64,000 bases of DNA, taken from contig JADKHN010000001.1 in assembly GCA_016721725.1 (NCBI GenBank), positions 651,617-715,616 on the forward strand, read 5' to 3'. Of the stretch, positions 1 through 20,068 are shown one piece after another. The position numbers and the translations under genes were made by a program. The DNA comes from Chitinophagaceae bacterium. GTDB taxonomy: Bacteria > Bacteroidota > Bacteroidia > Chitinophagales > Chitinophagaceae. Numbering within the stretch: position 1 is the first letter of the stretch; each line of letters opens with the position of its first letter. Below the pieces are notes generated by a model, which did no database searches, was not told the DNA's origin, and saw only the letters and a list, made by a program, of their open reading frames with translations.

Positions 1-151
1 TTCTTACACATTCCATTTTGTCACCAAATTTGTCAGCTCTAGAAAACCATACTTTTCCTTGTGATAAAAAGTCTTCCAGCCGATGAAAGGGAATAAATTT
101 AAAAAGAAATATTTCTGTAAGGTCTTTTGTATGATATGATTTCCATGGCAT
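1..151 (-). CDS. Partial cassette ORF, hypothetical protein (N-terminus only; runs off the left window edge)
   Basis: ATG at 151-149 lies 21 nt downstream (minus-strand sense) of the AAC...GTT end of repeat copy A. The frame stays open to position 2 and reads MPWKSYHTKDLTEIFLFKFIPFHRLEDFLSQGKVWFSRADKFGDKMECVR. The FSRADKFGD..E stretch faintly resembles DUF2971-type N-termini (weak). It is too short to appear in the ORF track. Confidence 0.35.
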   Translation of the reverse strand, partial: MPWKSYHTKDLTEIFLFKFIPFHRLEDFLSQGKVWFSRADKFGDKMECVR

Positions 152-171
152 AGTGATAGCTCAAAGGGTTG

Positions 172-370
172 CTTATAACGTCAACGGCTTGGCGTCAGGC
201 GGGATATTAGGATTTCGTCTGCCCGGCCGATGTCGCCCTAAGAATATAATTATTTGAAGTTACCAAAAATGCTCAAGAATAAACGGTCCAGCCCCGAGCT
301 ACTGCCTGGCCATGCACAAATGCCGAAGTTACATTGTCAGACCCCGCTTGCGCCAAACCCCTTGTTAGCA
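172..370 (-). repeat. attC-like structured repeat, copy A (about 199 bp)
   Basis: Closely similar by eye to copy C (3260-3457). Arm 186-203 GGCTTGGCGTCAGGCGGG is complementary to arm 342-359 CCCCGCTTGCGCCAAACC, with one unpaired T. Read on the minus strand the ends are TGCTAAC...GTTATAAG. It starts about 25 nt after the stop of ORF 395..808. Confidence 0.6.
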
Positions 371-394
371 GCATGGCATTTTTGTGCCTCGAAT

Positions 395-808
395 TTAGTT
401 TCTGAATTCAAATTTATCGCCCAATTTTTCAGCAATTGATCTTAATAGAGCCCAACCTTTACTTCCTTTATAATAAATTATGTTCTGCATGTTTTTGGGA
501 TTTTGAGTGTAACCCCAATCATCGATTTGCTTCAGTCCATAAATACCCGAAAACGTAACTGTGTTTTTATTAATTACTGCCATTATTCTGCATTGCCCAT
601 TGATATTTGTGAACTCCTTTGAATAAGTTGTAAGCGTGTCGTAATTGTAATTATCCTTAACTATAAAATCATAATTGACCAGAACTATTTTAACTTTTTT
701 ATATAAATCAATACTGTCTGCAACAGTAACAGTGATTTTAGTATCGCCAAATTTCTGGGCTTTGCAAAAAAAAGGGGAAATTAATATTAAGACAAGTAGG
801 TATTTCAT
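395..808 (-). CDS. Hypothetical secreted protein (cassette ORF)
   Basis: 137-aa ORF with an N-terminal signal-like peptide MKYLLVLILISPFFCKAQ. It is AT-rich and followed by repeat copy A. Confidence 0.6.
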   Translation of the reverse strand: MKYLLVLILISPFFCKAQKFGDTKITVTVADSIDLYKKVKIVLVNYDFIVKDNYNYDTLTTYSKEFTNINGQCRIMAVINKNTVTFSGIYGLKQIDDWGYTQNPKNMQNIIYYKGSKGWALLRSIAEKLGDKFEFRN

Positions 809-1035
809 TTTTTAAATTGCAGTAAAATATATCAGTATTAAAAGAGCTTCGTTTGCTTTGTGTCGTCCTGATTCTGGTTGACTCTTTTTTGCGTTATCCA
901 CAGCTGGATAAGTTGACTGTGTACTTCGCATTTAACTTTGTTTACTCATTTGCAGCCTATGCCTTTGTCAAATCTCCCCAGGCAGAGACCTTGCTTCTGT
1001 AAGCTTTCCAAACCCGTTTTAAAGCTCCGGTGCAT

Positions 1036-1836
1036 TCATGTGCCGCATTGGGGGGTAAGCCACTGTACACTTCGGTGGGGCCGATGCTGATTATAAAAAT
1101 CAATGAACTTCCTTATCTCTATTTTTGCTTCTTCAATATTACTAAAATTAATCTGACGATCGTACGTAAACTCCTCCTTGATCGTTCTGTGTATCCGCTC
1201 CGCTACCGCATTTTCCAAAGGGTCGCCGGTTTGTGTCATGCTGATCTGTATTTGCTGTTCCTCCAAGAGTTTTACATACGCATGGCAACAGTATTGCACT
1301 CCCCTGTCGCTGTGATGAATCAAGGGACGGGTGCTATCCTTTCTGCTCCTGATCGCTTGTTTTAAGGCGCTTATACAGCCTTTTACGCTTAAGGTGTCAT
1401 GAACACAATGACCCACTATTTTCCGCGAATACAGGTCGGTAATAATGCTCAGGTAGCAAAACTTGTCCTGGGGCTTTAACCACAGATAAGTAATGTCGGA
1501 CACCCAGATCTCATTAGCATTCAGTGGTTTAGATGATTCAATAAGATTCTTATACCGGTTGAAATGATGGTAACTGCACGTTGTCTTTGTTCGCCAACGT
1601 TTTGACTTGATCAGCAAATGATGGTTTCTGAGCAGATCAAAGAACTTGTCCCTTCCCATTTTTATTTCCCGCGCTTTAAATTCAGGTTGCAGGCTCTGGT
1701 GAAGGTTTCTGCCGCTGCCCCGCTTCCATATTTCCCGTTTCTTTTTGATCAGCCCAACAATGACTTCTTCCTTTAACAAGCTGTCAGCATTTTGATGATG
1801 CTGCTTATAGTAAGCCTGCTTGCTGCGCTTAAACAC
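1036..1836 (-). CDS. IS3-family transposase OrfB (DDE/rve integrase core)
   Basis: DDE-type motifs VWVSDITYL, HHSDRGVQY and ENAVAERIHRTIKEE. The frame is open upstream of the annotated GVG-type start (GTG at 1836) back into the OrfA 3' end, as expected for an OrfAB fusion. Confidence 0.85.
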   Translation of the reverse strand: MFKRSKQAYYKQHHQNADSLLKEEVIVGLIKKKREIWKRGSGRNLHQSLQPEFKAREIKMGRDKFFDLLRNHHLLIKSKRWRTKTTCSYHHFNRYKNLIESSKPLNANEIWVSDITYLWLKPQDKFCYLSIITDLYSRKIVGHCVHDTLSVKGCISALKQAIRSRKDSTRPLIHHSDRGVQYCCHAYVKLLEEQQIQISMTQTGDPLENAVAERIHRTIKEEFTYDRQINFSNIEEAKIEIRKFIDFYNQHRPHRSVQWLTPQCGT

Positions 1837-1846
1837 CTGGCAAAGC

Positions 1847-2277
1847 TCAGTTACTTTTTCTTTTGGCCTTTGCTTTTGGAAGGAGCTGATTGTTGGGCAC
1901 CATACTTTTTACGATGTCAATTTTGAACTTCTTTTCTGCTATCTCAATAGCATGCTGCCACAGGTCGGCCCGAAGTTCAGCCACCCGAAGCAACTCCCGG
2001 AGTTCCTTATTTTCCTCCTCCAGCTTTTTGTCGTGGATGTTCTTTCTCATTTCGGCAAAGTTAGCCACCGGCGTGCTTCTTTTTCACGGCCATGGAGGCC
2101 CCGGCTTTGGTTGATCCAGTAAAGAATGGTGGCATTGCCTTTAATCCCGTAGAGCAGCGAAGCCTGGCGCTTATTGAGTTTGCCACTCAGTACTTCGTCC
2201 ACAATTTTCTGCTTGAATTCCTCCGTGTAGAATAATTGCTGGGATCCCCTTCGGTTAGAGCTCTGTTTTTTACTCAT
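1847..2277 (-). pseudogene. IS3-family OrfA split into two frames (HTH part 2047..2277, leucine-zipper part 1847..2068)
   Basis: The N-terminal part, MSKKQSSNRRGSQQLFYTEEFKQKIVDEVL...ASLLYGIKGNATILYW, is HTH-like. The C-terminal part, KKLEEENKELRELLRVAELRADL, is coiled-coil-like and lies in the -1 frame. The junction is at an A5 run (plus-strand T run 2080-2084). Confidence 0.7.
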
Positions 2278-2347
2278 TTTTTGTCCTGTTTTTGGTTGAC
2301 TTATCCACTTTTTTGGAGTCAACCTATTTCAGGACTATACAGTTTGT

Positions 2348-2540
2348 GGCTAACGGGCAGGCATTTGCGAAGTTGGGGAATTAGAATTCCGTCAGCCTAG
2401 CTGGTGTCGCCCGGAGAATTTGTTATTTGAAGTTACGAAAATGCCGTTGAAGAAACGGTCAGGCCCCGGGCCGCTGCCGATAAACGGACAAAGCCGAAGT
2501 TACATTGTCAGGCCCCAATTTTGCAAATGCCAATGTTGTG
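2348..2540 (-). repeat. attC-like structured repeat, copy B (diverged)
   Basis: Same layout and conserved centre as copies A and C (TGTCGCCC..AGAAT..TTATTTGAAGTTAC..AAAATGC...GCCGAAGTTACATTGTCAGGCCCC). The arms have a different sequence but remain complementary: 2360-2378 GGCATTTGCGAAGTTGGGG versus 2513-2531 CCCCAATTTTGCAAATGCC. The minus-strand ends are CACAAC...GTTAGCC. It begins about 10 nt after the stop of ORF 2550..3236. Confidence 0.6.
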
Positions 2541-2549
2541 TGCAGCCTA

Positions 2550-3236
2550 CTACTTTTTCCTGCTTGCTTCCATTAGTGCAGGACTACCACAAAATACGAC
2601 AGCGCCTATCAAGTCATAATAAACCAATAAAGCGGCAAACACTACGGGTCTTTTATTTTTTTCATCCTTGAAAATTATATTGTTCTCATCAAATGAAAAG
2701 CCTGAAATTAAATATTTGAAAATGCTCGGATGACCAGAATATTTCCAGTTTGGATTTGTTTGTTGCAATAAATCATGAAATATAAAGCCAAGGGTCATTT
2801 GATTATTTTCACAACCATCTGCAACTACATGAATAGAGTAGTCATCGGGAACTAATTCTCCGTGCTCGTTAAAAAATATTCCTTTGAAGTTTTTGGTGTG
2901 AATATCTAGAGCATTCTTTAGTTTGAAGGTTACACTTTCAACTTGTCCGTGTTGATCGAAATTCAACCTGTTAAATGCTTTTTGTTTAAACAACCCTCGT
3001 ACAGTTTTTTCGCTTATTATTTGGTTTTCTATTAAACTCTCATTGGAAATTCCTATCATGTCTCTTATCTCACTGTCAATTGTAGAAAATTTGTTGTTGC
3101 ATTCGAAACAAGCCGGAACAGTCAATAAGTTTTGCTTATACTCATTTGGTTGCCCCGCGTATAGGTTTTTAGCTGGAATGTGTTCAGACGTTTTGCTTTC
3201 ATCTGTCAGTGTTACGCCGCAGTTATAACATATCAT
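2550..3236 (-). CDS. HNH (His-Me finger) motif protein with an uncharacterised C-terminal domain (cassette ORF)
   Basis: MICYNCGVTLTDESKTSEHIPAKNLY...NLLTVPACFECNNKFS fits CxxC...H...N...CxxCN. I moved the start to the ATG at 3236, because the track start at 3272 is a TTG inside repeat copy C. Confidence 0.65.
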   Translation of the reverse strand: MICYNCGVTLTDESKTSEHIPAKNLYAGQPNEYKQNLLTVPACFECNNKFSTIDSEIRDMIGISNESLIENQIISEKTVRGLFKQKAFNRLNFDQHGQVESVTFKLKNALDIHTKNFKGIFFNEHGELVPDDYSIHVVADGCENNQMTLGFIFHDLLQQTNPNWKYSGHPSIFKYLISGFSFDENNIIFKDEKNKRPVVFAALLVYYDLIGAVVFCGSPALMEASRKK

Positions 3237-3259
3237 AGTGAGAAGGGGTTTTATGGTTG

Positions 3260-3457
3260 CATACAACGTCAAGGGCTTGGCGTCAGGCGGGATATTAGGA
3301 TTACGTCTGCCCGGCCGATGTCGCCCTTAGAATTTAGTTATTTGAAGTTACCAAAAATGCTCAAGAATAAACGGTCCAGCCCCGAGCCACCGCCTGGCCA
3401 TGCACAAATGCTGAAGTTAGATTGTCAGGCCCCGCTTGCGCCAAACCCATGTTAACC
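3260..3457 (-). repeat. attC-like structured repeat, copy C
   Basis: Arms 3274-3291 and 3430-3447 are identical to those of copy A. The minus-strand ends are GGTTAAC...GTTGTATG. The TAA stop of ORF 3452..4018 lies inside the GGTTAAC box. Confidence 0.6.
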
Positions 3458-4018
3458 GCCGTATTTATTGTCTATGATGGTTAATCGATTAGTTTTCTTA
3501 AGGCATTCTATTAATTGCCTAGAATTTCGTGGGTCTGACCCTTTGAACCCATATTGAAAGCTAATTTCATTTTGACTTACAAAGGCATTTACTCCTAAAG
3601 GAGCTAAGGAAACATGCTTATCTATGAAGCACCCTCCGTAAACTATCTGACCATTTATAACCAAGGCAAATTGTCTAACTTGACGTACAGGTAAGTTTAG
3701 CATTTCCATCCTTTTTTCCACTGAAATTCCATATTCAGCCACATGAATTTGCTTTGAATGCCTTTTTGAACCTTTGTTGTTCATAGAGTACTTTTCAATT
3801 GTGTATGAAACAAGTTCAGAGTTTTTAATAAAGGCAGTGTCCTCAAGATCTGAGAGAATCGGCATAAATGAAACTGGCCTCTTAGAAACAGGGTCAAACA
3901 TAGGGTAGCTTTTTTTAAGAAGGTAAATTTCAATGCTGCAATCAAAAGAGCCCTTTATTTGAGAATATGAAACATGGGTAGAAAATAAGAGTACTATTAT
4001 TGCGAAAAGCTTAGGCAT
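3452..4018 (-). CDS. Hypothetical secreted protein (cassette ORF)
   Basis: 188-aa ORF with signal-like N-terminus MPKLFAIIVLLFSTHVSYSQ. It is AT-rich and its stop is embedded in repeat copy C. Confidence 0.6.
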   Translation of the reverse strand: MPKLFAIIVLLFSTHVSYSQIKGSFDCSIEIYLLKKSYPMFDPVSKRPVSFMPILSDLEDTAFIKNSELVSYTIEKYSMNNKGSKRHSKQIHVAEYGISVEKRMEMLNLPVRQVRQFALVINGQIVYGGCFIDKHVSLAPLGVNAFVSQNEISFQYGFKGSDPRNSRQLIECLKKTNRLTIIDNKYGG

Positions 4019-4058
4019 TTGTCAATAGGTTAGGAAATGGGAGCTGCCAAAATATGGC

Positions 4059-4137
4059 GGTTAACTCTTTAATAGACGCTGAATAGGATTGCCCCAAAGC
4101 TGCGTCTATTTGGGTATCGGTTTGATAACGATTGATC
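4059..4137 (-). repeat. Possible short, divergent attC-like hairpin at the array boundary
   Basis: GGTTAAC at 4059-4065 is followed by a perfect 9-bp inverted repeat, AATAGACGC (4071-4079) and GCGTCTATT (4113-4121), then GTTTGAT. It lies 41 nt upstream of the ATG of ORF 3452..4018. Confidence 0.3.
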
Positions 4138-4315
4138 TATATAAATATACGTAATTGAAAAGAGGGGCAAACAATTTCAAATACGCAATCCAGGAGCCTC
4201 CCTGTTTTTCACCCGGTCCCCAATATCATACCAGCCCCCACCCCCTTCACCGGGTTGATCAACTCATTCCTTACCGGCTCTCCGAACTGTATCCCGCTGG
4301 ATAAGACCGCAAAGA

Positions 4316-4678
4316 CTACGGTAGTCTGCTTCCCCCCTTCCCCTCCAGCCGGTCACATTCCTGAACGCTCCCCAGCCTGAATTTAAAGGGCAACCCGGTC
4401 TTTTTTTCAAACCGGATCTCCTGGCGGCAGAAAAAACCCAGGTTGGACGAATAAAAATTGGCGGGAAGCAGGGTGATCAATGAAAATGGCCGTTGAAAGC
4501 AGGCGGTATCGGTCCTGGGTTTCTTCGCATATTTTTTCAGGTCGATCGGCCGGCAACTGCGCTCAAAGCCACTGTCAGCAGGGAAATACCTCACCCGGGA
4601 TGGCGTTTTAGGTTGACCAAAAGCGGCGTTCCCCACAAAAATCATGCAGAAAATCAAAAATTTAGCTTTTTGCTTCAC
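4316..4678 (-). CDS. Hypothetical small secreted protein
   Basis: 120-aa ORF with signal-like N-terminus MKQKAKFLIFCMIFVGNAAFGQ. It overlaps a plus-strand ORF with no recognisable features. Confidence 0.4.
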   Translation of the reverse strand: MKQKAKFLIFCMIFVGNAAFGQPKTPSRVRYFPADSGFERSCRPIDLKKYAKKPRTDTACFQRPFSLITLLPANFYSSNLGFFCRQEIRFEKKTGLPFKFRLGSVQECDRLEGKGGSRLP

Positions 4679-4783
4679 TTTCCAAGGGGGTTTAGCTGTA
4701 AATTTACGCCGGGTCCGGCCTTAAAGTTACTGTTTTTGACTGGACCCGAAGTACTAAAAACCGGCAACATACCCCAATAAAAC

Positions 4784-6271
4784 ATGGCCTTAAGTCAGGG
4801 ACTATACCAAAAGCAACTCCAGAAACTGTCTCCCCAGCAGATCCAGCTGATGAAACTGTTGCAGGTGCCTACGGCCATACTGGAAGAGCGCATCAAGGAG
4901 GAAATGGAGGAAAACCCGGCCCTGGAACTGGATGAAGAAGGGCATGAGGACGAATATGATGAATCGAAGGATGAATTCAAGGAAGACGAGACCGAGGATT
5001 TTGAAGCGGACGGCAGCGAGGATGAATATGAGAACATCGACATCAGCGAATACGTGAGCGAAGGTGACGACGACGTGGGCGACTATAAGCTCCGGGACGA
5101 GAACTATCCCGAGATCGACGACAGCCGCGTCATCCCCCACAAGGTGGAGACGGGCTTCAACGAACTGATGATGGAGCAGCTGGGACAACTCAACCTGGAC
5201 GAACACCAGCAACAGGTGGCTGAACAGATCATCGGCAACCTCGACGACGATGGGTACCTGCGCCGCGACATTTCTTCTATCGTAGATGACATGGCCTTCC
5301 GGCAGAACATCATCACCTCCGAACAGGAGATCGGCCAGCTCGTCTTGCAGATCCAGCAATTCGACCCTCCCGGCATCTGCGCCCGCAACCTGCAGGAATG
5401 CCTGTTGTTACAACTGGAACGGAAATCGGATGAAGGGGCCCATGTGGAAATGGCCATCAAGGTGATGGAGAAATATTTCGATGAGTTCACCAAGAAGCAT
5501 TACGAGAAGATCCAGCGCGGCCTCAACCTCTCTGATGATCAGCTGAAAGAGGTCATCAACCAGATCATCAAACTCAATCCTAAACCCGGAGGCACGATCG
5601 GCGAAACGGGCAAGAATGAGAACTATGTGGTGCCCGATTTCTTCATATTCAACAATGCCGGCAAGCTGGAACTCACCCTGAATTCCAAGAACGCCCCCGA
5701 CCTGCGCATCAGCGAAGGCTACCGCGACATGCTGAAAGAATACGACCGCGGCAGCAAGAAGGATAAACGCCAAAAAGAGGCCGTGCTCTTCATCAAGCAA
5801 AAGATCGACGCGGCCAAATGGTTCATCGACGCCATCAAGCAAAGACAGAACACCCTGCTCAATACCATGGAAGCCATCATGAATTACCAGCGTGAGTTCT
5901 TCGTCACCGGCGATGAGACCACCCTGCGGCCCATGATCCTCAAATACATCGCGGAAGCCACCAACCTCGACATCTCAACGGTGAGCCGGGTGGCCAACAG
6001 CAAGTTCGTCCAGACGGAATTCGGCACCTACCGGCTCAAGTTCTTCTTCAGTGAAAGTCTGCAGACCGACAGCGGCGAGGAAGTGAGCACCCGGGAGGTG
6101 AAAAAGATCCTGAGCGATCTGATCGAAGCGGAAAGCAAGAAGCATCCGCTGAGCGACGAGCGGCTGACCGAGCTTTTACAGGAAAAAGGGTATAATATTG
6201 CCCGCAGGACCGTGGCCAAATACCGGGAACAACTGAATGTGCCCGTGGCGAGGCTGAGGAAAGAATTATAA
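4784..6271 (+). CDS. rpoN: RNA polymerase sigma-54 factor
   Basis: Gln-rich N-terminus (QKQLQKLSPQQIQLMKLLQ), an acidic linker and the C-terminal RpoN box IARRTVAKYREQL. Length is 495 aa. Confidence 0.95.
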   Translation: MALSQGLYQKQLQKLSPQQIQLMKLLQVPTAILEERIKEEMEENPALELDEEGHEDEYDESKDEFKEDETEDFEADGSEDEYENIDISEYVSEGDDDVGDYKLRDENYPEIDDSRVIPHKVETGFNELMMEQLGQLNLDEHQQQVAEQIIGNLDDDGYLRRDISSIVDDMAFRQNIITSEQEIGQLVLQIQQFDPPGICARNLQECLLLQLERKSDEGAHVEMAIKVMEKYFDEFTKKHYEKIQRGLNLSDDQLKEVINQIIKLNPKPGGTIGETGKNENYVVPDFFIFNNAGKLELTLNSKNAPDLRISEGYRDMLKEYDRGSKKDKRQKEAVLFIKQKIDAAKWFIDAIKQRQNTLLNTMEAIMNYQREFFVTGDETTLRPMILKYIAEATNLDISTVSRVANSKFVQTEFGTYRLKFFFSESLQTDSGEEVSTREVKKILSDLIEAESKKHPLSDERLTELLQEKGYNIARRTVAKYREQLNVPVARLRKEL

Positions 6272-6354
6272 AATTAATTGCTCCCTTTATTAAAGAGAGT
6301 TCTGAATTATAGAACGCTTCGTTTCAGGGAACTGAATTTGAGTTTACAGTAGCA

Positions 6355-6477
6355 TCCCGAAAGCTTTCGGGACTTAATCAGGGCTCCCCCGGTCCCGATA
6401 GCTATCGGGAGCGGTAATGATTGCCGGGTGTCTTTTTTGCCTGCCCCGAGAAAGACACATGAGGGCAGGCTCGGGGG
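6355..6477. repeat. Cluster of GC-rich palindromes downstream of rpoN (terminator/REP-like)
   Basis: Perfect palindromes TCCCGAAAGCTTTCGGGA (6355-6372) and TCCCGATAGCTATCGGGA (6393-6410). Further paired segments are GTGTCTTT/AAAGACAC and GCCTGCC/GGCAGGC. Confidence 0.6.
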
Positions 6478-6552
6478 ACAAGCAAAAAAGAACAAAAGAA
6501 ATAAGAATTGTTACTTAGAATTTTAATCGCTCGATATAATTTAACCTTTTCA

Positions 6553-7224
6553 ATGCAGGCTTCCATTCAAAAAGATCAGGCACCCTCCGGCAAAAAACCT
6601 TTGTTGCTGCGCTTGCTTGCCCATTTCTTCTCCTACCTCTTCCACCCGCTCTTCATTCCCGTTTATGTACTCTTGTTCCTGCTCCGGTTCCACCCTTCTT
6701 ATTTCTCCGGATTCGGCGAAGACGACCGGTTCAAACTATTACTCACCACCATCCTGAATACCGTCTTCTTCCCGGCCTTTTCCATCTTGCTGATGAAGGG
6801 ACTGGGTTTCATTCAATCGGTCCTGCTGCCCACACAAAAAGAAAGGATCGCTCCGTACCTGACTGCGATGATCTTTTATTTCTGGGCGGCCTGGGTCTAT
6901 TTTAAATTCAATCCGCAACCCGATGTTGCGCTGGCTTCTTTCATGACCGGCGTCTTCCTCACCACCGTGGCGGCCTTACTGCTCAATATCTATTTCAAGA
7001 TCAGCATGCACGCCATGGGCGTAGGCGGACTGGTGGGCTTCTTCCTCATCGTCATGAAAAGCAATTCGATGCTGATGACCTGGCCGCTTTCCCTGGCTTT
7101 TTTGATCGCAGGACTGGTCTGCACCTCCCGGATGATCGTGAGCGATCATGAACCCAGGGATATCTATGCGGGATTTTTTGTGGGAATGGGCTGCCAGTTC
7201 GTGGCGGCGGTGGTGATAATGTAA
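6553..7224 (+). CDS. PAP2-superfamily-like integral membrane phosphatase
   Basis: Multi-TM protein. SMHAMG resembles the PSGH motif, and TSRMIVSDHEPRDIYAG fits SRxxxxxHxxxD. I placed the start at the first ATG (6553) rather than the TTG at 6508. Confidence 0.55.
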   Translation: MQASIQKDQAPSGKKPLLLRLLAHFFSYLFHPLFIPVYVLLFLLRFHPSYFSGFGEDDRFKLLLTTILNTVFFPAFSILLMKGLGFIQSVLLPTQKERIAPYLTAMIFYFWAAWVYFKFNPQPDVALASFMTGVFLTTVAALLLNIYFKISMHAMGVGGLVGFFLIVMKSNSMLMTWPLSLAFLIAGLVCTSRMIVSDHEPRDIYAGFFVGMGCQFVAAVVIM

Positions 7225-7225
7225 A

Positions 7226-7382
7226 GGCCGGCCCCCTCCATCTCCCCCGAAGGGGGAGGGAAAGCCCCCTCCAAACCTCCCCCGAAGGGGGAGGCTTCAG
7301 AGAGCAAAATACTTTTAAAGAGGTTTCAATTTCGTAGAGTCTTCGGACCCTCCCCCTTCGGGGGAGATGGAGGGGGCTGGCC
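7226..7382. repeat. Composite GC-rich palindromic element (three ~30-bp units, two direct and one inverted)
   Basis: The unit is GCCCCCTCCA..CTCCCCCGAAGGGGGAG, at about 7230 and about 7264 (direct) and 7348-7382 (inverted). The outer 33-bp arms 7226-7258 and 7348-7382 are complementary with one mismatch. Confidence 0.8.
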
Positions 7383-7383
7383 T

Positions 7384-7418
7384 AAAAAGAATCCCGCCAT
7401 AATAGCGGGATCTTTTGT
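7384..7418. terminator. Rho-independent-type hairpin (possibly bidirectional)
   Basis: AAAAAGA, then stem ATCCCGC (7391-7397), loop CATAATA and stem GCGGGAT (7405-7411), then CTTTTGT. Confidence 0.6.
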
Positions 7419-7806
7419 CTCCTGTCGTGCCTAACAATAAAAACTTTAAAACTGTAGAGGGAAAAAAGCCTTTAACTGCTAAGTATCTTTGATCGGCGGC
7501 GGTTGCATTTGCCTGCAACGAGTAGGCCAATGTTGGGTTAACTTGATTTTCTTTGGTTTGGGTTGAGGTTACAAAATCTGTTTACTAAAGCGAATGATCA
7601 GCTCTTTTTATTGTGTTAACGACAAGGCTAAAACGCATTTTTTTTATTGTGATGCCATAACGGGTAATTTTACGAGGTAAGTCTACTTGAAAAGACCGGC
7701 AAATGAGTGGCTTATTATGAAAAACCTGAATACCTGCCTGGTTTTTATGATCTCAAGGTCATTTAACTACTCTTAACTAAGACTTCCCCGACCAGTCAAT
7801 ATCATT

Positions 7807-7814
7807 TATATTTG
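7807..7814 (+). promoter_or_regulatory. Bacteroidota-type -7 promoter element (TAnnTTTG)
   Basis: TATATTTG lies 21 nt upstream of the ATG at 7835. It matches the known primary-sigma -7 consensus of Bacteroidetes. Confidence 0.35.
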
Positions 7815-7834
7815 CAGTTGGTAATTTTTTCAAC

Positions 7835-8326
7835 ATGAATAGCAGGATCATACTGGCTTTAATATTGACTTTGGGCCTTTTCCCGGCCAACGGCTCGATC
7901 GGGCAAAAAGCCTTTGAACGCGGGGCGTTCTATGCCGCCATGGCCTCTTCCAAACTGGATGAAGTGGATCAGCAACTGTCTGCCCTGAAAAGTTATTCCG
8001 GTCCCGAAAAAGAGGCCTACGAAGGAGCGCTGCTCATGAAAAAATCGGGACTGATGAACAAGGCAAAGGAAAAACTGAACCTGTTCAAATCCGGCCGTTC
8101 CAAGCTGGAGGCTTCCATTGCCCGCGACAAGAACAATGCGGAATACCGTTTCCTGCGTCTCATCATACAGGAACACGCGCCCAAACTGGTCAATTACCGC
8201 AACGAGATCGATAACGACACGCGGCAGATCAGATCCAATTACAGGTCATTACCGGATGCTGTTCAACTCGCCATCCTGGATTATGCGAAAAAATCAACGG
8301 TGCTGAAAGCCTCCTTTTTCAATTGA
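7835..8326 (+). CDS. Hypothetical secreted protein, translationally coupled to darA
   Basis: 163 aa with signal-like N-terminus MNSRIILALILTLGLFPANG. Its stop lies 5 nt before the darA ATG (the TTG start alternative at 8323 would overlap it). Confidence 0.6.
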   Translation: MNSRIILALILTLGLFPANGSIGQKAFERGAFYAAMASSKLDEVDQQLSALKSYSGPEKEAYEGALLMKKSGLMNKAKEKLNLFKSGRSKLEASIARDKNNAEYRFLRLIIQEHAPKLVNYRNEIDNDTRQIRSNYRSLPDAVQLAILDYAKKSTVLKASFFN

Positions 8327-8331
8327 AGCGA

Positions 8332-9231
8332 ATGAATAAGAAGATACTGGTCATTTATTATTCCCAATCGGGTCAATTGGGTGAGATCCTGGATCGTTTC
8401 ATTGAACCCCTTCAGCGATCGGGACATACCATTGAAAAGGTCTGTGTTCAACCCGTCACCCCGTATCCTTTCCCCTGGAAGGGAAAAAGTTTCTTTGCCG
8501 TGATGCCCGAATCGGTGAGGGAAGTGCCCGCACCCTTACAACCCTTTCAGTTAAAAGAATCCCGTTACGACCTGGTGTTGCTGGGATACCAGGCCTGGTT
8601 CCTTTCCCCCAGCATCCCCGTGAATTCGATCCTGAAGACCGATGCCGTAAAAGCCGTTCTCAAAGACACCCCGGTCATAACCATTACCGGTGCCCGAAAT
8701 ATGTGGATCAGCGCGATGGAAAGGATCAGGTTCATGCTAAAAGAAGCGGGCGCCCGTCACGTGGGCAATATCGCGCTGGTGGACAAACATCATAATTTCA
8801 TCAGCTTCGTCACCATCTTTTACTGGATGTTCAAAGGAAAGAAGGATCGATGGCTGAATCGATTTCCCAAGCCGGGCGTGTCGGATGAGGATATCCTGAA
8901 TACGTCGGTATTTGGCGCGATCGTTGAACCCCATCTCGCTTCGGGCAACTGGGACGGATTGCAGGACGAGCTCCTGGCAAAAAAAGCCGTAGAGGTAAAA
9001 TACAATCTGATGTTCATAGAATCCAAGGCCAAGCGCATTTTCACGATCTGGGCAAGGTTCATTTCCAGGAGAAAAAAAAGAACAGCCTGGCTTGTTGTAT
9101 TCAAATATTATCTTTTAATTGCACTGTTTATAGCAGCTCCCATCATATTAACGGTTGATGCGATCTTTTTCAAACCCTTTTTATCAAAGCGGATCAAAAG
9201 GCAAAAACAGTATTTTTCAGGCGTAAACTAA
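8332..9231 (+). CDS. darA: Dialkylresorcinol-condensing enzyme DarA-like protein
   Basis: About 300 aa with a flavodoxin-like N-terminus KILVIYYSQSGQ and a C-terminal TM segment. It sits immediately upstream of a KAS III-like gene, which is the canonical darAB arrangement in flexirubin clusters. Start placed at the ATG at 8332. Confidence 0.7.
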   Translation: MNKKILVIYYSQSGQLGEILDRFIEPLQRSGHTIEKVCVQPVTPYPFPWKGKSFFAVMPESVREVPAPLQPFQLKESRYDLVLLGYQAWFLSPSIPVNSILKTDAVKAVLKDTPVITITGARNMWISAMERIRFMLKEAGARHVGNIALVDKHHNFISFVTIFYWMFKGKKDRWLNRFPKPGVSDEDILNTSVFGAIVEPHLASGNWDGLQDELLAKKAVEVKYNLMFIESKAKRIFTIWARFISRRKKRTAWLVVFKYYLLIALFIAAPIILTVDAIFFKPFLSKRIKRQKQYFSGVN

Positions 9232-9240
9232 CTTACAAGA

Positions 9241-10389
9241 ATGTCTTTCAACGAAGTCTACATTGTCAATACTTCTTCTTATTTCCCGAACGACCCGGTT
9301 TCGAATGAAGAGATGGAGGAATACCTGGGGTTCATCAACGAAAAACCTTCCAAATCCCGGCGTATCGTATTACGCAATAACGGTATAAAGAACCGATACT
9401 ATGCCCTTACCCGCGACGGGAAAGTGACCCATACCAATGCGCAGATCACCGCGGAGGCCGTGAAAGCGGTCACCGGTAATACGGAATCCGGGCTGAAAGC
9501 CATCGACCTCCTGTCTTGTGGCACTTCCACACCCGACCAGGTGATGCCTGCCCATGGTGTGATGGTACACGGGCTGCTCCCGGAGACCAATGCCATCGAA
9601 GTGGTTTCTCCTGCCGGCGTTTGTTGCGCGGGTATGCACGCCCTGAAATACGCTTACCTGTCGGTCAAGACCGGTGAGGCCCGGAACGCGGTGGCCACCG
9701 GATCCGAGCGGTTCTCCACCCTGCTCACCGCTTCTGTTTTTGAAGACGAGGCACAACAACTCAAGGCGCTTGAAGAAAACCCCTATATCAGTTTTGAAAA
9801 GGAATTCCTGCGCTGGATGTTGTCTGACGGAGCCGCCGCCTTCCTGATGAAGGATAAACCCAATGAGACCGGCATCAGTCTGAGGGTGGAATGGCTTGAA
9901 GGCGTTTCCTATGCGAACACCATGGAAGCCTGCATGTACAGCGCCAGTGAAAAACTTCCGGATGGCAGCCTGAAAAGCTATATGGAATATTCACCCGAGG
10001 AGATCATCCACAAATCCATACTCAGCATCAAACAGGATGTGAAACTGCTCAGCGAGAACATCGTCCCCCTGGGTGGCGTAGGCCTCAAAGCCGCACTGGA
10101 CAAGCATGGTGTAAAATCATCCGAGATCGATTATTTTCTTCCCCATATGTCGAGCGAATTCTTCAAAGACAAGATCTTTCAGCGGCTCATCGAGAATGGC
10201 ACCGGCATCACGTATGATAAATGGTTCGTCAACCTCACCACGGTAGGCAATGTCGGGGCCGCTTCCGTTTACCTCATGGTGGACGAGCTGTTCCACAGCG
10301 GCAAGCTGAAAACGGGTGATAAGATCCTGCTGCTGGTTCCGGAAAGCGCCCGCTTTTCCTATATGTACAGCCTGCTCACGGTATGCTGA
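9241..10389 (+). CDS. darB: KAS III (FabH)-like ketosynthase, DarB-like
   Basis: 382 aa. Thiolase-fold motifs are GVCCAGMHA (Cys), PHMSSEF (His) and GNVGAAS (Asn). It is adjacent to darA. Confidence 0.8.
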   Translation: MSFNEVYIVNTSSYFPNDPVSNEEMEEYLGFINEKPSKSRRIVLRNNGIKNRYYALTRDGKVTHTNAQITAEAVKAVTGNTESGLKAIDLLSCGTSTPDQVMPAHGVMVHGLLPETNAIEVVSPAGVCCAGMHALKYAYLSVKTGEARNAVATGSERFSTLLTASVFEDEAQQLKALEENPYISFEKEFLRWMLSDGAAAFLMKDKPNETGISLRVEWLEGVSYANTMEACMYSASEKLPDGSLKSYMEYSPEEIIHKSILSIKQDVKLLSENIVPLGGVGLKAALDKHGVKSSEIDYFLPHMSSEFFKDKIFQRLIENGTGITYDKWFVNLTTVGNVGAASVYLMVDELFHSGKLKTGDKILLLVPESARFSYMYSLLTVC

Positions 10390-10473
10390 TCCGGCCCCTA
10401 AACTAATCGGCCGGATAACGCATAATGCTTTAATTTCGTTCACACGCTTAAACCGTCCACCAAAGCCTGTTTT

Positions 10474-10881
10474 ATGAAAAAAGAAGATATCCCGCAGGAT
10501 GACGGCGCACTCAACAAACTGACCAAGGAAGTGGTCTATGCCGTCGATCAATCGGGTAAATACACCACGGAACTGAGTACCGGATGGGAGGTGAAGGCCA
10601 ATGCGCTTGACCTGGCCTGGAAGGACATCGGGAACCGGATCGAAAAGGCCCGCCAACAGGTACTGAACCGGGAAGCCAGTCCCCTGCTTTATTTCATGGA
10701 ATTACGTCTGATGGATATCGGGATCGTTTCCGCCTATACCGGCTTCTGGAAATGGACCATCCGCCGGCATATGAAGCCCGGCGTATTTGAGAAACTTCCC
10801 GAGAACAAATTACAGCGCTATGCCGAGGCCTTCAATGTCTCCCTCGAAGAATTAAAATCGATGAACGTTCATGAAGACTGA
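10474..10881 (+). CDS. Hypothetical protein (possible C-terminal HTH-like segment)
   Basis: 135-aa ORF whose 3' end overlaps the next gene by 11 nt, so it is operonic. No clear motif. Confidence 0.55.
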   Translation: MKKEDIPQDDGALNKLTKEVVYAVDQSGKYTTELSTGWEVKANALDLAWKDIGNRIEKARQQVLNREASPLLYFMELRLMDIGIVSAYTGFWKWTIRRHMKPGVFEKLPENKLQRYAEAFNVSLEELKSMNVHED

Positions 10882-11887
10882 ATTTCAACACCTCCAGGCC
10901 GCACATTGTGAGAACGGGGTGACCACCAACCTGCTGCGTGCCGTTGGCGCCCATCAACTCACCGAACCGCTTTCCTTTGGCATTGGTTCCGGCCTTTTTT
11001 TCATCTATATCCCCCTGCTCAAGATCAATAATGGTCCGGCATTCGCTTTCCGGACCATGCCCGGACTGATCTTTAAAAGGACCTGCAAATCACTGGCCAT
11101 CCCGGTGGTCAGGAAAAAATTCAGTTCCAGGGAAGCGGCGGAACAGGCGCTGGAAGACTGTCTTCGTGCGGGTCAGCCGGTCGGATGCCAGGTGGGTGTT
11201 TATTACCTGACCTATTTCCCCAAGGAATACCGCTTTCATTTCAATGCGCATAACCTCATTGTTTATGGAAGAGAAGAAGATCAATATCTCGTCAGTGACC
11301 CGGTCATGGAAAACGTCACCTCCTTAAGCCGTTACGAGCTGGAAAGGGTCCGTTTTGCCAAAGGAGCATTGGCGCCGAGGGGACAGCTTTATTATCCCCG
11401 GGAGAAAAAGATCGTCACGGACGACCAGCTGCGCAGCGCCATCAAAAGCGGCATTAAAAGAAATGTCAGGGACATGCTCTACATACCCGGCAGCATCGCC
11501 GGCGTGAAGGGTATCGCCTATACCGGAAAAAAAATAAAGAAATGGAGGGACAAACTGGGGCCTGAAAAGGCCGGGCTTTACCTGGCCCAATTGGTGCGTA
11601 TGCAGGAAGAGATCGGTACGGGCGGCGGAGGTTTCCGCTATATCTATGGCGCTTTTCTGCAGGAAGCCTATGCCTTTCACCCCATCGATACCCTGCCCGA
11701 AGTGTCTAAAATGATCACCGAGGCCGGCGACCTCTGGCGTGCCGCGGCTGTTCAGGCGGCAGGTATCTATAAAGGCAGGATCGGCAGCCAGGCCGATTTT
11801 GACCAGATGGGTGATTACCTGATCAAGATATCCGGGATCGAAAAAGAGGCTTTTAAAACACTGGCTAAAATCAACTGGAAGGCATGA
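10871..11887 (+). CDS. BtrH N-terminal-domain-like (papain-like Cys) protein
   Basis: 338 aa. N-terminus LQAAHCENGVTTNLLR resembles the BtrH_N catalytic-Cys region. This is recalled family similarity, not computed. Confidence 0.5.
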   Translation: MKTEFQHLQAAHCENGVTTNLLRAVGAHQLTEPLSFGIGSGLFFIYIPLLKINNGPAFAFRTMPGLIFKRTCKSLAIPVVRKKFSSREAAEQALEDCLRAGQPVGCQVGVYYLTYFPKEYRFHFNAHNLIVYGREEDQYLVSDPVMENVTSLSRYELERVRFAKGALAPRGQLYYPREKKIVTDDQLRSAIKSGIKRNVRDMLYIPGSIAGVKGIAYTGKKIKKWRDKLGPEKAGLYLAQLVRMQEEIGTGGGGFRYIYGAFLQEAYAFHPIDTLPEVSKMITEAGDLWRAAAVQAAGIYKGRIGSQADFDQMGDYLIKISGIEKEAFKTLAKINWKA

Positions 11888-12633
11888 GCTTGACCGCTGT
11901 CAGCATAGATAACCTGGGTTTTTCTTACCCCGGCCAGGACAAACCCTGCCTGCGGAACCTCTGCCTGGAGATCGGCGCCGGTGAACGGTTCGGCCTGTTC
12001 GGACCGAACGGTGCCGGTAAAACGACATTAATGAACCTCATGACCGGGCTCTTGAATATCCAGGAAGGCCATATCAAACTCTTTGGCCAGGAAGTGAGCC
12101 GGCACCAATTGTCGATCCGCAAACTATTCGGTTTCATCCCCCAGGAACTTTCCTTTTACCGCGAACTAAGCCCCGTAGAGAACATGGCTTTCTTCGGAGC
12201 CTGGGCCGGTATGGACAAAAAACAGATCCGGGACAAGACGACCGAATTGCTGGAAGTGCTCGGTCTGAGCGAAGTGCGGCATAAGCAGGTTGAAAAATTC
12301 TCCGGCGGTATGAAACGCCGTGTCAACCTGGCCATCGGGGTGATGCACAACCCCCGGATCATTTTCCTGGATGAACCCACGGTTGGCGTTGACGTACATA
12401 CCCGGCATGCCATCATCAATTACCTGAAGGCGCTGAACAGCAACGGCACCACACTGGTCTATACCTCACACCAGCTGAGTGAGGCCGAAGACCTTTGCGA
12501 CCGGATCGCCCTGATCGATGAGGGCCGCATACTGGCGCATGATACGCTGGAGAACCTGCTGGAAAGCCATCGTGAAGAAGGCCTCGAAGGTCTCTTCATT
12601 AATTTAACCGGAAAAAAATTCAGGGACAACTGA
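11884..12633 (+). CDS. ABC transporter ATP-binding protein
   Basis: Walker A GPNGAGKTT, signature FSGGMKRR, Walker B IIFLDEPTVGVD. Confidence 0.9.
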   Translation: MSLTAVSIDNLGFSYPGQDKPCLRNLCLEIGAGERFGLFGPNGAGKTTLMNLMTGLLNIQEGHIKLFGQEVSRHQLSIRKLFGFIPQELSFYRELSPVENMAFFGAWAGMDKKQIRDKTTELLEVLGLSEVRHKQVEKFSGGMKRRVNLAIGVMHNPRIIFLDEPTVGVDVHTRHAIINYLKALNSNGTTLVYTSHQLSEAEDLCDRIALIDEGRILAHDTLENLLESHREEGLEGLFINLTGKKFRDN

Positions 12634-13913
12634 TGCAGAAACTACTGGCCACGATCATCAAGGACATCCGCATCCTTACCCGGGACAAACTCGGCCTCAT
12701 CTTCATGTTCGTGATGCCTATCGTGCTGGCCATTGTGATCACCGCGGTTCAGAACAGCACTTTCGAGATCCTCAATAAAAATAAAGTCCCCCTGCTGCTC
12801 TGCAACAAGGACACCGGCCGTGCCGGCATCGACCTGGTGAAAGCCATCGATAAGGTGGGCATGTTCGAGATCAAGACCATCAGCGCAGATCAGGACCAGG
12901 CGCAGATCTCCGAAAGAATGCATGCCAAAGACGCCGTGGTAGCCATCATCATCCCGGCGGATTACAGCAGTAAAACGGAAGCCCGGTGCAAGAGCATCGC
13001 CTCCAAAGCCCTGAAGAATTTCGGGATGGAAGTGGATACCGTCAGATCCGGCCACGACAGCCTTCAGCCCATCACCTTATTATATCACCCGGTATTGCAG
13101 GAATCCTTCCGGCACTCGATGAACGGCGCATTGAAAAGCGCGCTGCAAATGGTGCAAAGCCGTTTGGTATTGAAGAACCTCTATTATTCACTCAACGAAA
13201 AAGAACTTCCCGATTCCCTGGAGAACCAGATCCTCAACAACCAGGTTGAGATCAACGAGATCCCCGTATCCAGGGATGGCAGCCGGAGTATCCCGAATGC
13301 CACACAACATAATATACCTGCCTGGACCATCTTCGCGATGTTCTTCATCGTGATCTCCCTGGGCGGCAGCGTGGTGAGGGAGAAACTGAGCGGTAGTTTC
13401 GTCCGGTTGAAGACGCTTCCCACCAATTATTTCCTGGCCCTGGTCTCCAAACAGATCACCTACCTCCTCATCACCCTGCTGCAGGTAGCGGTGATCTTTT
13501 CCATCGGCATCTGGTTATTCCCGCATATGGGACTGCCCAAACTGATTTTGCCGGCTGATATTACCGGGGTAATCATTGTTTCCTTAATTTGCGGGTGGTG
13601 TGCGGTCAGTTATGCCATTTGCATCGGCGTATTCGCCCAAACACAGGAACAGTCGAACGGGGTTGGGGCGGTTTCCATTGTTTTGATGGCCGCCATCGGC
13701 GGATTGCTGGTACCCAGCTTCGCCATGCCACAGTCGTTCCAGTTCGTGATGAAGCTCTCTCCTTTGCATTGGTGCCTGGAGGCTTTTTACGGCCTTTTCC
13801 TGGAAGGAGGTAAGCTGAGCGATATCATGTACAATATTTTGCCTTTATTGGGTATCACCGGGTTCTTTCAGCTGATCATGCTGTACGGCTTGAAAAGAAA
13901 GAACCTGATCTGA
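12633..13913 (+). CDS. ABC-2-type transporter permease
   Basis: 426 aa with an N-terminal TM segment, a large loop and five or so C-terminal TM segments. It is start/stop coupled to the ATPase gene. Confidence 0.8.
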   Translation: MQKLLATIIKDIRILTRDKLGLIFMFVMPIVLAIVITAVQNSTFEILNKNKVPLLLCNKDTGRAGIDLVKAIDKVGMFEIKTISADQDQAQISERMHAKDAVVAIIIPADYSSKTEARCKSIASKALKNFGMEVDTVRSGHDSLQPITLLYHPVLQESFRHSMNGALKSALQMVQSRLVLKNLYYSLNEKELPDSLENQILNNQVEINEIPVSRDGSRSIPNATQHNIPAWTIFAMFFIVISLGGSVVREKLSGSFVRLKTLPTNYFLALVSKQITYLLITLLQVAVIFSIGIWLFPHMGLPKLILPADITGVIIVSLICGWCAVSYAICIGVFAQTQEQSNGVGAVSIVLMAAIGGLLVPSFAMPQSFQFVMKLSPLHWCLEAFYGLFLEGGKLSDIMYNILPLLGITGFFQLIMLYGLKRKNLI

Positions 13914-13924
13914 AAAATAAAATT

Positions 13925-14188
13925 ATGGAGACCGAAGAATTAAAACTGCAATTAAAGAAACAGATCATCGAATTCCTCAACCTGATCTCCGTTAAACCCG
14001 AGGACATCAAGGACGATGAGCCCCTGTTCGGGGAAGGGCTGGGGCTTGACTCCATCGACTCCATCGAGCTGATCGTATTGCTCGGCCGGGAATACGGCAT
14101 CGACATCAAAGACCCCAAGGAGGGCCGCAAAGTACTGGTGGACATCAATACCATGGTGGCCTATATCGAACAACACAGAACCAAATAA
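13925..14188 (+). CDS. Acyl carrier protein
   Basis: 87 aa with phosphopantetheine-attachment motif GLGLDSIDSIELI. Confidence 0.9.
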   Translation: METEELKLQLKKQIIEFLNLISVKPEDIKDDEPLFGEGLGLDSIDSIELIVLLGREYGIDIKDPKEGRKVLVDINTMVAYIEQHRTK

Positions 14189-14195
14189 CCTTTCA

Positions 14196-15386
14196 TTGAG
14201 CAGGATCTTTGTCACAGGCATGGGAATCGTCAGCGCCATCGGGCGATCCCTGGTGCAAAACCACCTGTCGCTCCGGGAAGGGAAATGCGGCATCCGCAAC
14301 GAACTCGACCTCTTCCCGTCAAAATATGCCGGTGTATTGCCCTTTGGTACGGTGCCCGTCAGCAATAACGAACTCCGCCAGACGCTCCATGCGCAAGAAC
14401 CCGGCGTTACCCGAACCTCACTGCTTGCCTTACACGCATTCAACGAAGCCATTGCCGACAGCGGATTAAGCCCGGAACAACTAGCAAACACCGATACCGC
14501 CCTGGTTGGCGCAAGCACGGTCAGCGGCATGTGCCTGACCGACGAGTTGTACCACGATGCCAATAAGAAAGAAGCGGGATCCCCCTATCTCTCCTCTTAC
14601 GACAATGCGGCCGTTACCCTCTACCTGCAAAATCGTTTTGGTATGAAGGGAGTCATCAATACCATCAATACCGCCTGCTCTTCTTCGGCCAACTCCATTG
14701 TGTATGGCGCGAACCTCATCCGGCACGGACTGGCCAAACGGGCCATTGTCGGCGGCGCCGACAGCCTGGCCAAATTCACCATCAACGGGTTTAACTCGCT
14801 CCACATACTTTCCCCGGATAAATGCCAGCCCTTCGACGAACAGCGAAAAGGGTTGAACCTCGGTGAAGGCGCCGCCTTCCTGGTATTGGAAAGGGAAGAA
14901 GATACCACCGGAAAAAAAGTGTATGCCGAATTCACCGGTCATGGCAATTCCAATGACGCCTATCATCCTTCCTCTCTGTCTGATGAAGGCGAAGGCCCTT
15001 ACCTGTCCATGAAAGAAGCGCTGGACCGGGCAAGACTGGATCCCGCCCAGATCGGATTCATCAACGCCCATGGCACCGGCACCGAGAACAACGACCTGGT
15101 GGAAAGCGTGGCGATGATCCGCCTGTTCAAGAACCCGCCCGCCTTCGCGTCCACCAAATCCAATACCGGCCATACCCTGGGAGCATCCGGAGCCATTGAG
15201 GCCGTGTACAGCATATTGAACCTGGCCGAACAGGAGATCTATCCCGGTCTGCGTTTTGAACATCCCATCGCGGCGACCGGTTTGATCCCCGTACAGTCGT
15301 ACCAAAAAACGGCATTACAGCACGTGATGTCCAATTCATTCGGCTTTGGAGGAAATTGTTCATCCCTGATCTTTTCAACAATATGA
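14196..15386 (+). CDS. Beta-ketoacyl-ACP synthase (KS, FabF/type II PKS-like)
   Basis: Motifs NTACSSSANS (Cys), NAHGTGT (His) and GHTLGASG (His). TTG start at 14196. Confidence 0.9.
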   Translation: MSRIFVTGMGIVSAIGRSLVQNHLSLREGKCGIRNELDLFPSKYAGVLPFGTVPVSNNELRQTLHAQEPGVTRTSLLALHAFNEAIADSGLSPEQLANTDTALVGASTVSGMCLTDELYHDANKKEAGSPYLSSYDNAAVTLYLQNRFGMKGVINTINTACSSSANSIVYGANLIRHGLAKRAIVGGADSLAKFTINGFNSLHILSPDKCQPFDEQRKGLNLGEGAAFLVLEREEDTTGKKVYAEFTGHGNSNDAYHPSSLSDEGEGPYLSMKEALDRARLDPAQIGFINAHGTGTENNDLVESVAMIRLFKNPPAFASTKSNTGHTLGASGAIEAVYSILNLAEQEIYPGLRFEHPIAATGLIPVQSYQKTALQHVMSNSFGFGGNCSSLIFSTI

Positions 15387-16435
15387 GGCCCCTGTTTTAC
15401 ATACACCAGTCGAGTTGCATTTCCCCGCAATCCAGCTTTGAGCCGGTGGATATCGATCAGCTGTTTGAGCCGGCGGACAATAAACTGATGGCGCGGGAGC
15501 CTTCCTACGACGGGATCCCGCCCGGTATATTACGCAGGATGGGTAAAGCGGTACGAATCGGCGTGGGCGCCGCGCTGCCCATCATCAAAGGGCCTGCGGA
15601 GATCAACGGCATCATCATCGGCACGGCCAACGGCGGCATGGAAGATTGCATCAAATTCCTGAACCAGATCATCCAATATGAAGAAGGCCAGCTGACACCG
15701 GGTAATTTTGTACAAAGCACGCCCAATGGCATAGCGGCCCAGCTCGGACTGATCAGCAAGAACCGGTCGTACAACATCACGCATGTTCACCGGGGACTTT
15801 CCTTTGAGAACGCCGCGATCGACGCGGCCATGCAACTGGCCGATCATCAGGATAACAGTTATCTCCTGGGTGCGGTGGATGAGATCTCGGCCTATAACTA
15901 CAATATAGACTGGCTGGGCGATTGGTTCAAAGACGAGAACACCGGTTCCGGTACGCTTTACAACTCCGGTACCAAGGGCAGTATCGCCGGGGAAGGCGCT
16001 GCCATGTTCCTGGTCAATCGGCAAAAAGAAAACGCGGCCGCCAGTATCATTGCCATAAAAACCCTTCATACCCCTGATTTGAACCTGGTACAACAAAGCC
16101 TTGTAAATTTCTTAGAACAGAACCTGGCTGAAGGAGAAAGGATCGATCTGCTGCTGAGTGGAGAGAATGGAGATGCCCGGATCGACCCGTACTACCATGC
16201 CTGCGAAACCCTGATGGGCGAAGGAACGACCATTGCCCGCTTCAAGCACCTGTGCGGAGAATTCACCACCGCTTCGGCGATCAGTTGCTGGCTGAGCTGC
16301 CATATCCTGCAACAGCAACGCATCCCGGAGCATATGCTGAAACGCAAGGGCAACCCAAATGCCCTGAACCGGATCCTGGTTTACAATAATTACCGGGGAG
16401 AGCAGCACGGCTTCATGTTACTAGGCCGGGCTTGA
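15383..16435 (+). CDS. KS-like protein lacking the catalytic Cys context (chain-length-factor-like)
   Basis: The ATGA overlap with the KS stop supports a start at 15383. Thiolase-fold similarity (SIAGEGAAMFLV) without the CSS and HGTGT motifs. Confidence 0.7.
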   Translation: MRPLFYIHQSSCISPQSSFEPVDIDQLFEPADNKLMAREPSYDGIPPGILRRMGKAVRIGVGAALPIIKGPAEINGIIIGTANGGMEDCIKFLNQIIQYEEGQLTPGNFVQSTPNGIAAQLGLISKNRSYNITHVHRGLSFENAAIDAAMQLADHQDNSYLLGAVDEISAYNYNIDWLGDWFKDENTGSGTLYNSGTKGSIAGEGAAMFLVNRQKENAAASIIAIKTLHTPDLNLVQQSLVNFLEQNLAEGERIDLLLSGENGDARIDPYYHACETLMGEGTTIARFKHLCGEFTTASAISCWLSCHILQQQRIPEHMLKRKGNPNALNRILVYNNYRGEQHGFMLLGRA

Positions 16436-16442
16436 TGACCGA

Positions 16443-18017: not shown

Positions 18018-18117
18018 AAATTCAATTGTTGTTTGTTTGAGTATGGTCGTAAATGGCCGACGCGGCTCTTAGGAGACGCCTGGTAAAACTAGGATAAAAA
18101 ACAATTCGGGGAGGGCA

Positions 18118-19812: not shown

Positions 19813-20068
19813 GATGCCCTAAGTTAATCTATTTAATGAAAGTTTTTCCGGTCACGCGATTTACACCAGGTTTATAATATCTGACCGGAATGTTTAAATC
19901 CAATGCCGCAAAACGGTTCTCCATTTCAACAATCCAATCACGCTTTGCCATTATTGAATAATTCTGAATAACTTTAAGCGGTTGATCTGTATCAGAATTA
20001 TTCCTGTCTGCATTAATTCTGCCTACCGGAACGACCGCAATGCCAAAATCTTAACCGCTATCTGAACA

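Follow-up and report, generated by a model that had tools for sequence, protein, structure and literature searches.

A repeat of about 195 bp in the first kilobases of the window, by which we mean the whole 64-kb stretch of DNA analysed here, raises the question of what kind of element it belongs to. From the pairing of its arms, the original prediction had interpreted the repeat as an attC site that is recombined as a folded single strand. The analysis described below indicates that the repeats are probably attC sites of an integron-type gene-cassette array; they were identified by anatomy and not with the IntegronFinder covariance model.

Repeat searches of the 64-kb window recovered exactly three copies (A, B and C), all within the first 3.5 kb, against a chance expectation of 0.3. 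The window was matched with 99.5-99.7% identity to contig JADJKA010000001.1 of NCBI assembly GCA_016706245.1, from which two further copies (D and E), located left of the window, were obtained. Over window positions 1-16238 the two assemblies differ by ~0.3-0.5%, with several of the differing positions inside attC sites A and C (for example GTCAAC versus GTCAAG, and GAAGTTAG versus GAAGTTAC). These mismatches may mean that the window is a second assembly or strain, or may stem from polishing noise within the repeats.

The sites are composed of a 7-nt box ending in AAC, a 5-nt spacer, a stem, a centre of ~140 nt, the return stem, a 2-3-nt spacer and a GTT-box, and the complementary arms that form the stem are 18-19 bp long in all five copies. 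On the plus strand, the AAC of the start box and the GTT of the end box are invariant (5/5 sites). Compared with the consensus RYYYAAC ... GTTRRRY, the 7-nt boxes deviate at one or two positions each, as in GTTGTAC and GTTAGCA. The arms of B, GGCATTTGCGAAGTTGGGG (2360-2378) and CCCCAATTTTGCAAATGCC (2513-2531), form 19 contiguous, bulge-free pairs that include two G.T pairs on the plus strand. Those of A and C (GGCTTGGCG-T-CAGGCGGG and CCCCGCTTGCGCCAAACC) contain a single bulged T together with a C.A mismatch and a G.T pair, and the arms of D and E are identical to them. The coordinates and arm sequences first given for A, B and C were correct, including the pairing of the B arms at all but the two G.T positions. 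That the sites are longer than classical attC sites was likewise confirmed: box to box they measure 194-198 nt (five copies), compared with 57-141 bp for classical sites (PMC5027507), a range that is descriptive and not mechanistic. The positions of all sites, ORFs and associated features are listed in Table 1.

Table 1. Positions of the repeat copies, cassette ORFs and associated elements. Coordinates are those of the window unless stated otherwise.
Feature	Position	Strand	Description
attC-like site A	173-370	-	198 nt; plus strand TTATAAC ... GTTAGCA; arms 186-204 and 342-360; follows ORF 395-808
attC-like site B	2348-2541	-	194 nt; GGCTAAC ... GTTGTGT; arms 2360-2378 and 2513-2531; follows ORF 2550-3236
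attC-like site C	3261-3457	-	197 nt; ATACAAC ... GTTAACC; arms 3273-3291 and 3431-3448; follows ORF 3452-4018
Copy D	left of window, JADJKA010000001.1 (stretch numbering 4427-4624)		
Copy E	left of window, JADJKA010000001.1 (stretch numbering 3564-3761)		
Terminal half-site AAATATGGCGGTTAAC	4050-4065	-	15/16 complementary to the tail of site C after GTT
Cassette ORF	3452-4018	-	188 aa; no family match; stop codon inside the right box of C, GTTAACC
Cassette ORF	2550-3236	-	228 aa (240 aa from an upstream TTG); no family match
Cassette ORF	395-808	-	137 aa; no family match
Cassette ORF, N-terminal part	1-146	-	237 aa as a whole; DUF2971 / PADLOC PDC-S31; its attC is copy D
IS3-family insertion sequence	859-2341	-	26-nt imperfect terminal inverted repeats; rve integrase core

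The array comprises five units of 0.6-0.95 kb each (one of them enlarged by an insertion sequence), and in every unit a single short ORF on the minus strand precedes a site of ~197 bp. The ORFs between the copies are unrelated and all lie on the minus strand, with each stop codon 0-25 nt from its repeat. The cassettes (ORF segments) have a GC content of 30-37%, against ~50% in the flanks. For the analysis of cassette junctions, the 16-nt tail after the GTT of each site was compared with the 16 nt that precede the AAC of the next site. Complementarity across sites was 14/16 from E to D, 14/16 from D to A, 11/16 from B to C and 15/16 from C to the terminal half-site, and was lower, at 6-11/16, between the tail and its own site. 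At the junction from A to B, where the tail is interrupted by the insertion sequence, the match within the box is 6/7. The best tail match was site n+1 in four of the five junctions. The bases past GTT thus fit the next site and not their own, as is characteristic of cassette joining at G|TT. Because the ends match across sites and ORF and site recur as a unit, the region was read as five ORF+attC cassettes, and the half-site at 4050-4065 marks the rpoN-side end of the array. The attC interpretation put forward originally is therefore supported, mostly by evidence beyond that on which it was based, namely the co-oriented, AT-rich array of ORFs with sites, the invariant AAC and GTT, and the cross-site tails.

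The IS3-family element has inserted into the cassette that separates B from A, at a distance of 6 bp from B's left box, and is an intruder outside the array proper. Its repeats are TGTGTCGTCC...GGACTATACA, and it carries one ORF with an HTH and another, frameshifted, with the rve integrase core. The same IS-cassette junction was found in two Logan assemblies (SRR10931997 and SRR10932013). At the other end of the array, a 9-bp hairpin (AATAGACGC / GCGTCTATT, 21-nt loop, z of -1.3 and -2.1) was noted at 4050-4133 beside the terminal half-site (GGCGGTTAAC), with an AAC 5 nt before it and a GTT 9 nt beyond it. This hairpin could be a short attC of a different kind, an attI-like remnant or a chance structure.

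For covariation analysis, the five copies were aligned over 17 arm pairs, of which 98.8% of cells are paired. B departs from the other copies at seven positions per arm, and all pairs are nonetheless kept. Five arm pairs are changed on both sides and one has changed from GC to GU. None of 500 shuffles reached the observed level, and slid-partner controls were all 0. All of the covariation is traceable to a single diverged copy or lineage, B. The paired substitutions, which had been taken to indicate selection for a folded hairpin, are thus real (five double-sided changes, 0/500 shuffles), but with one diverged copy they fall short of proving such selection, since template-switch correction, or binding of a symmetric protein, can make inverted repeats co-vary as well. 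Under the integron mechanism only pairing would be needed in the stem, which would account for the conservation of structure over sequence in the arms of B.

Arms-only hairpins, joined by a tetraloop, had z-scores of -4.5 to -6.4, and 0/200 shuffles folded as well. The whole ~198-nt element was not more stable than its shuffles (z of +0.4 and +0.1 for D, -1.1 and -1.7 for B). A fold more stable than shuffled controls, as expected from the original prediction, was accordingly seen for the arms and not for the entire element. On both strands, all MFE and centroid structures had the arms paired. The folding signal is confined to the arms, and the ~140-nt centre adds no stability. Length above the classical range, a whole-element fold no better than shuffles, covariation that comes from B alone, a bulged T on the unexpected arm (and none in B), the lack of an integrase near the array and the absence of further copies from the collections scanned count against an identification as attC.

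The centre is conserved at the level of sequence blocks. Identity between B and D amounts to 77% for the centre (107/139), as against 61% for the arms (22/36; Fisher p = 0.06), and the long blocks that are identical in the centre include TTATTTGAAGTTA and GAAGTTACATTGTCAGGCCCC. The direct duplication that had been described for the central module was recovered, with GAAGTTAC present twice in every copy; in shuffles, the repeat was obtained in 0/100 cases as a 9-mer in D and in 10/100 as an 8-mer in B. An internal duplication of the centre as a whole was considered and rejected, as the shared part is only this 8-9-mer. A small hairpin of 6-7 bp, CGTCNGC-NNN-GCNGRTG, is kept in 5/5 copies (plus strand, alignment columns 51-67). 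Central helices proposed by RNAalifold were rejected as they are broken by B, no covariation was detected within the centre among the five copies, and no conserved terminator or promoter was found in the repeat across copies. A small ORF across the repeat was rejected as well: the frame changes in B, so the central module is non-coding. The centre was regarded as a terminal structure that is long and variable and that the copies share by descent; a function at the sequence level is possible.

The steps by which such sites would recombine are inferred from the established integron mechanism (PMC5027507), the array anatomy itself being observed. One strand would fold on itself such that the AAC and GTT boxes pair (R box), and the 18-19-bp stem would provide the L box and the stem of the hairpin. 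An IntI-type tyrosine recombinase encoded elsewhere would then bind the hairpin, with strand exchange at AA|C (G|TT on the opposite strand), and units of ORF and attC would be excised and inserted by the integron integrase. A hairpin with exchange at AA|C would explain why the bases beyond GTT match the next site. The long centre would correspond to the variable terminal structure, its copies being alike by common origin and possibly also by a role at the sequence level. Homogeneous attC sites and long branched terminal structures have been described for CALINs and sedentary arrays (PMC4889954, PMC5027507).

Strand assignment gave conflicting indications. In attC sites, the extrahelical bases of the recombined bottom strand lie in the L'' arm at about positions 16 and 23/24, and a T at position 23/24 is conserved (PMC5027507). 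Since the ORFs lie on the minus strand, this strand counts as the 'top' and the plus strand as the 'bottom' one, which is recombined. With plus as bottom, a T is found at position 23 from the GTT-side box in 5/5 copies, but it is G.T-paired; the bulged T (plus strand, 4/5 copies) is on the arm opposite that expected from ORF direction, and B is bulge-free. With minus as bottom, four of the five copies have an A bulged out at position 23 and, at the canonical 6-bp spacing, a G at 16 in a wobble pair; the ORFs are then inverted. Folding energy favours the minus strand in four copies (A, C, D and E) and the plus strand in B, and base skews are near zero. The recombined strand is therefore ambiguous. 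This conflict between ORF direction and bulge position makes it possible to ask, in a concrete case, how the choice of strand is encoded outside Proteobacteria.

The sites may form a distinct class of attC in Bacteroidota, in which strand and extrahelical bases are mirrored relative to the ORFs, or in which the ~140-nt centre is a functional platform. In the second variant, the GAAGTTAC boxes or the centre might bind an accessory factor or extra integrase, by analogy with the direct repeats of attI1. A distinct class appears rather unlikely; if it existed, a lineage-specific integrase would be expected that reads the site differently from IntI1 or VchIntIA.

The arms could also act without any hairpin, either as double-stranded sites for a symmetric protein (TIR-like, or for another site-specific recombinase) or as a quasi-palindrome corrected by template switching. 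The ~140 nt between the arms that contribute no folding stability, the covariation from one lineage only and the lower identity of B and D in the arms (61%) than in the centre (77%), unlike what a simple hairpin constraint predicts, would agree with such sites. However, complementarity of the ends is greater across sites than within a site, where a transposon with terminal repeats would give the reverse, and the units come without an associated transposase or recombinase. The units of ORF plus site with AAC/GTT junctions fit integron cassettes, and both mismatches retained in the arms of B are G.T on one strand. Protein sites or a corrected quasi-palindrome were consequently judged improbable, and the attC reading was retained.

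Intergenic palindromic repeats of the REP/BIME or MITE type, accumulated between genes, resemble the repeat in being short, palindromic, intergenic and multi-copy. In contrast to such dispersed elements, all five copies lie in one ~6-kb array and the other 60 kb of the window contain none; target-site duplications are absent, and the ends are complementary to neighbouring sites and not to their own. The repeat is also missing from the public collections that were scanned. An exact-pattern scan of representative genomes gave 14 matches, all due to chance, two metagenome scans with independent conserved blocks gave 0 matches, viral contigs gave chance matches only, and plasmid BLAST gave no match. 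A protein-word search with the peptide read through the repeat, aimed at spurious ORF calls on related sites, returned nothing, and the repeat is absent from one longer contig that is related through a homologue of the 138-aa neighbour. An origin as REP, BIME or MITE is thus very improbable.

A reading of the repeat as a non-coding structured RNA, or as an element of the 3'-UTR, in which the arms would form a closing stem tolerant of compensatory change around a conserved core, would match the variable stem with conserved internal blocks, the location of the repeat in the 3' region of each ORF and the small hairpin kept in all copies, but is the least credible of the explanations given that Rfam gave no match at gathering score (whole window) or even at E<=5 (positions 1-4200), that the central helices are broken by B and the centre lacks covariation, that z-scores of the whole element are near 0, that a conserved terminator or promoter is absent, and that the complementarity of boxes across sites would be left unexplained.

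For the attC reading, the neighbourhood of the array was inspected for a recombinase. Over the interval that begins 7.4 kb left of the window and ends ~36 kb into it, the gene tables list no integron integrase or tyrosine recombinase. A scan of the window for integrase motifs, a weak test, was negative, and positions 36-64 kb were covered by this motif scan together with a large-ORF family scan. The intI gene and attI site that a complete integron has within ~4 kb of its array were not found. As no integrase lies next to it, the array was classed as a CALIN and not as a complete integron by published definitions (PMC4889954, PMC9024848), a classification that refers to the neighbourhood of the array. 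It shares with CALINs the presence of two or more co-oriented attC-like sites, spaced by less than 4 kb, and the lack of a nearby integrase; the sites were called here by anatomy and not by the IntegronFinder model. CALINs contain on average five to six sites (PMC9024848).

The host is a Ferruginibacter-like member of the Chitinophagaceae. It has a T9SS sorting domain and the flexirubin gene FlxA, and the rpoN homologues are from organisms named as Ferruginibacter or Chitinophagaceae. The locus was compared with two relatives whose rpoN is 91-93% identical. In both, the array is absent and the order is DegT, 48 bp, a gene of 110 aa and rpoN; homology to the window starts at ~4320. Since the relatives have the locus without the array, the region was interpreted as an acquired island that ends right after the stop codon of the small gene (4316). 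The array is part of this island of defence genes, inserted downstream of the small gene that neighbours rpoN. Among the five cassettes, the one ahead of copy D is alone in matching a candidate defence family, PDC-S31 (3e-17). Left of copy E, genes for a PLD-family nuclease and type IIG restriction-modification enzymes were found. As the restriction-modification block and the array are both absent at the rpoN locus of the relatives, they probably form one defence island.

Further features were noted left of the window. The PLD-family nuclease and the Eco57I/MmeI-like type IIG enzymes adjoin the array at 15228-20687, in the numbering of a separate stretch. A 330-bp non-coding stretch lies left of copy E, between the last attC and the PLD-family nuclease gene (3226-3560 in the numbering used for copies D and E); it contains the G-rich motif GGGTGGGTGGGCT twice and a 20-bp hairpin with 90% complementarity (ATTTTTAGC...GCTAAAAAT).

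Several structures were recorded elsewhere in the window. A large GC-rich inverted repeat, GGCCGGCCCCCTCCATCTCCCCCGAAGGGGGAG ... CTCCCCCTTCGGGGGAGATGGAGGGGGCTGGCC, with repeated CCCCCGAAGGGGGAG palindromes, is located downstream of a PAP2 gene at 7225-7385, and smaller hairpins (cccgaaagctttcggg and cccgatagctatcggg) are located at 6355-6410. At 56603-57406, three tandem 252-bp repeats with 68-69% identity lie inside an ORF of 1909 aa with a T9SS sorting domain at its end; they probably correspond to repeats of a protein domain. Positions 15000-47000 hold a flexirubin / aryl-polyene-type cluster with the FlxA tyrosine ammonia-lyase, several ketoacyl synthases, ACPs, ApeI/ApeP-like proteins, LolA and an RND-like transporter fused to acyltransferase and methyltransferase. 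The cluster is ordinary for Bacteroidota and unrelated to the attC repeats.

Compared with attC sites of sedentary chromosomal integrons, the sites described here share the AAC...GTT boxes, the spacer that stays unpaired, the non-Watson-Crick positions within a paired stem and the long terminal region. At the level of the array, the near-identical sites, the single promoterless and co-oriented ORF per site and a GTT tail that belongs to the next cassette are shared as well. The repeats of Vibrio cholerae, which are attC sites of a sedentary chromosomal integron, measure ~120-130 bp, whereas the present sites measure 194-198 bp and have a ~140-nt centre that is essentially unstructured yet conserved in blocks, with two GAAGTTAC boxes. 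They also differ in having one bulged base, which is on the unexpected arm and is missing in B. Integron cassettes can carry anti-phage defence genes (bioRxiv 10.1101/2024.07.02.601686). Such cassettes are paralleled here by the one PDC-S31 cassette and by the restriction-modification genes that the array abuts; unlike them, one of five cassettes has a match and the restriction genes are not flanked by the repeat. Integrons have rarely been reported in Bacteroidota (PMC9024848), and a Chitinophagaceae host is unlike that of usual integrons.

The array is thus a known type of element, integron cassettes with no adjacent integrase, and is unusual in the length of its sites, in their unstructured but conserved centre and in its host. 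It adds an integron-type cassette array for Chitinophagaceae from activated sludge, in which at least one cassette is defence-like and which lies within a restriction-modification island. A length of nearly 200 bp is about the upper limit that attC detectors accept (the default size limit of IntegronFinder). With sites at this limit, similar arrays may be under-counted.
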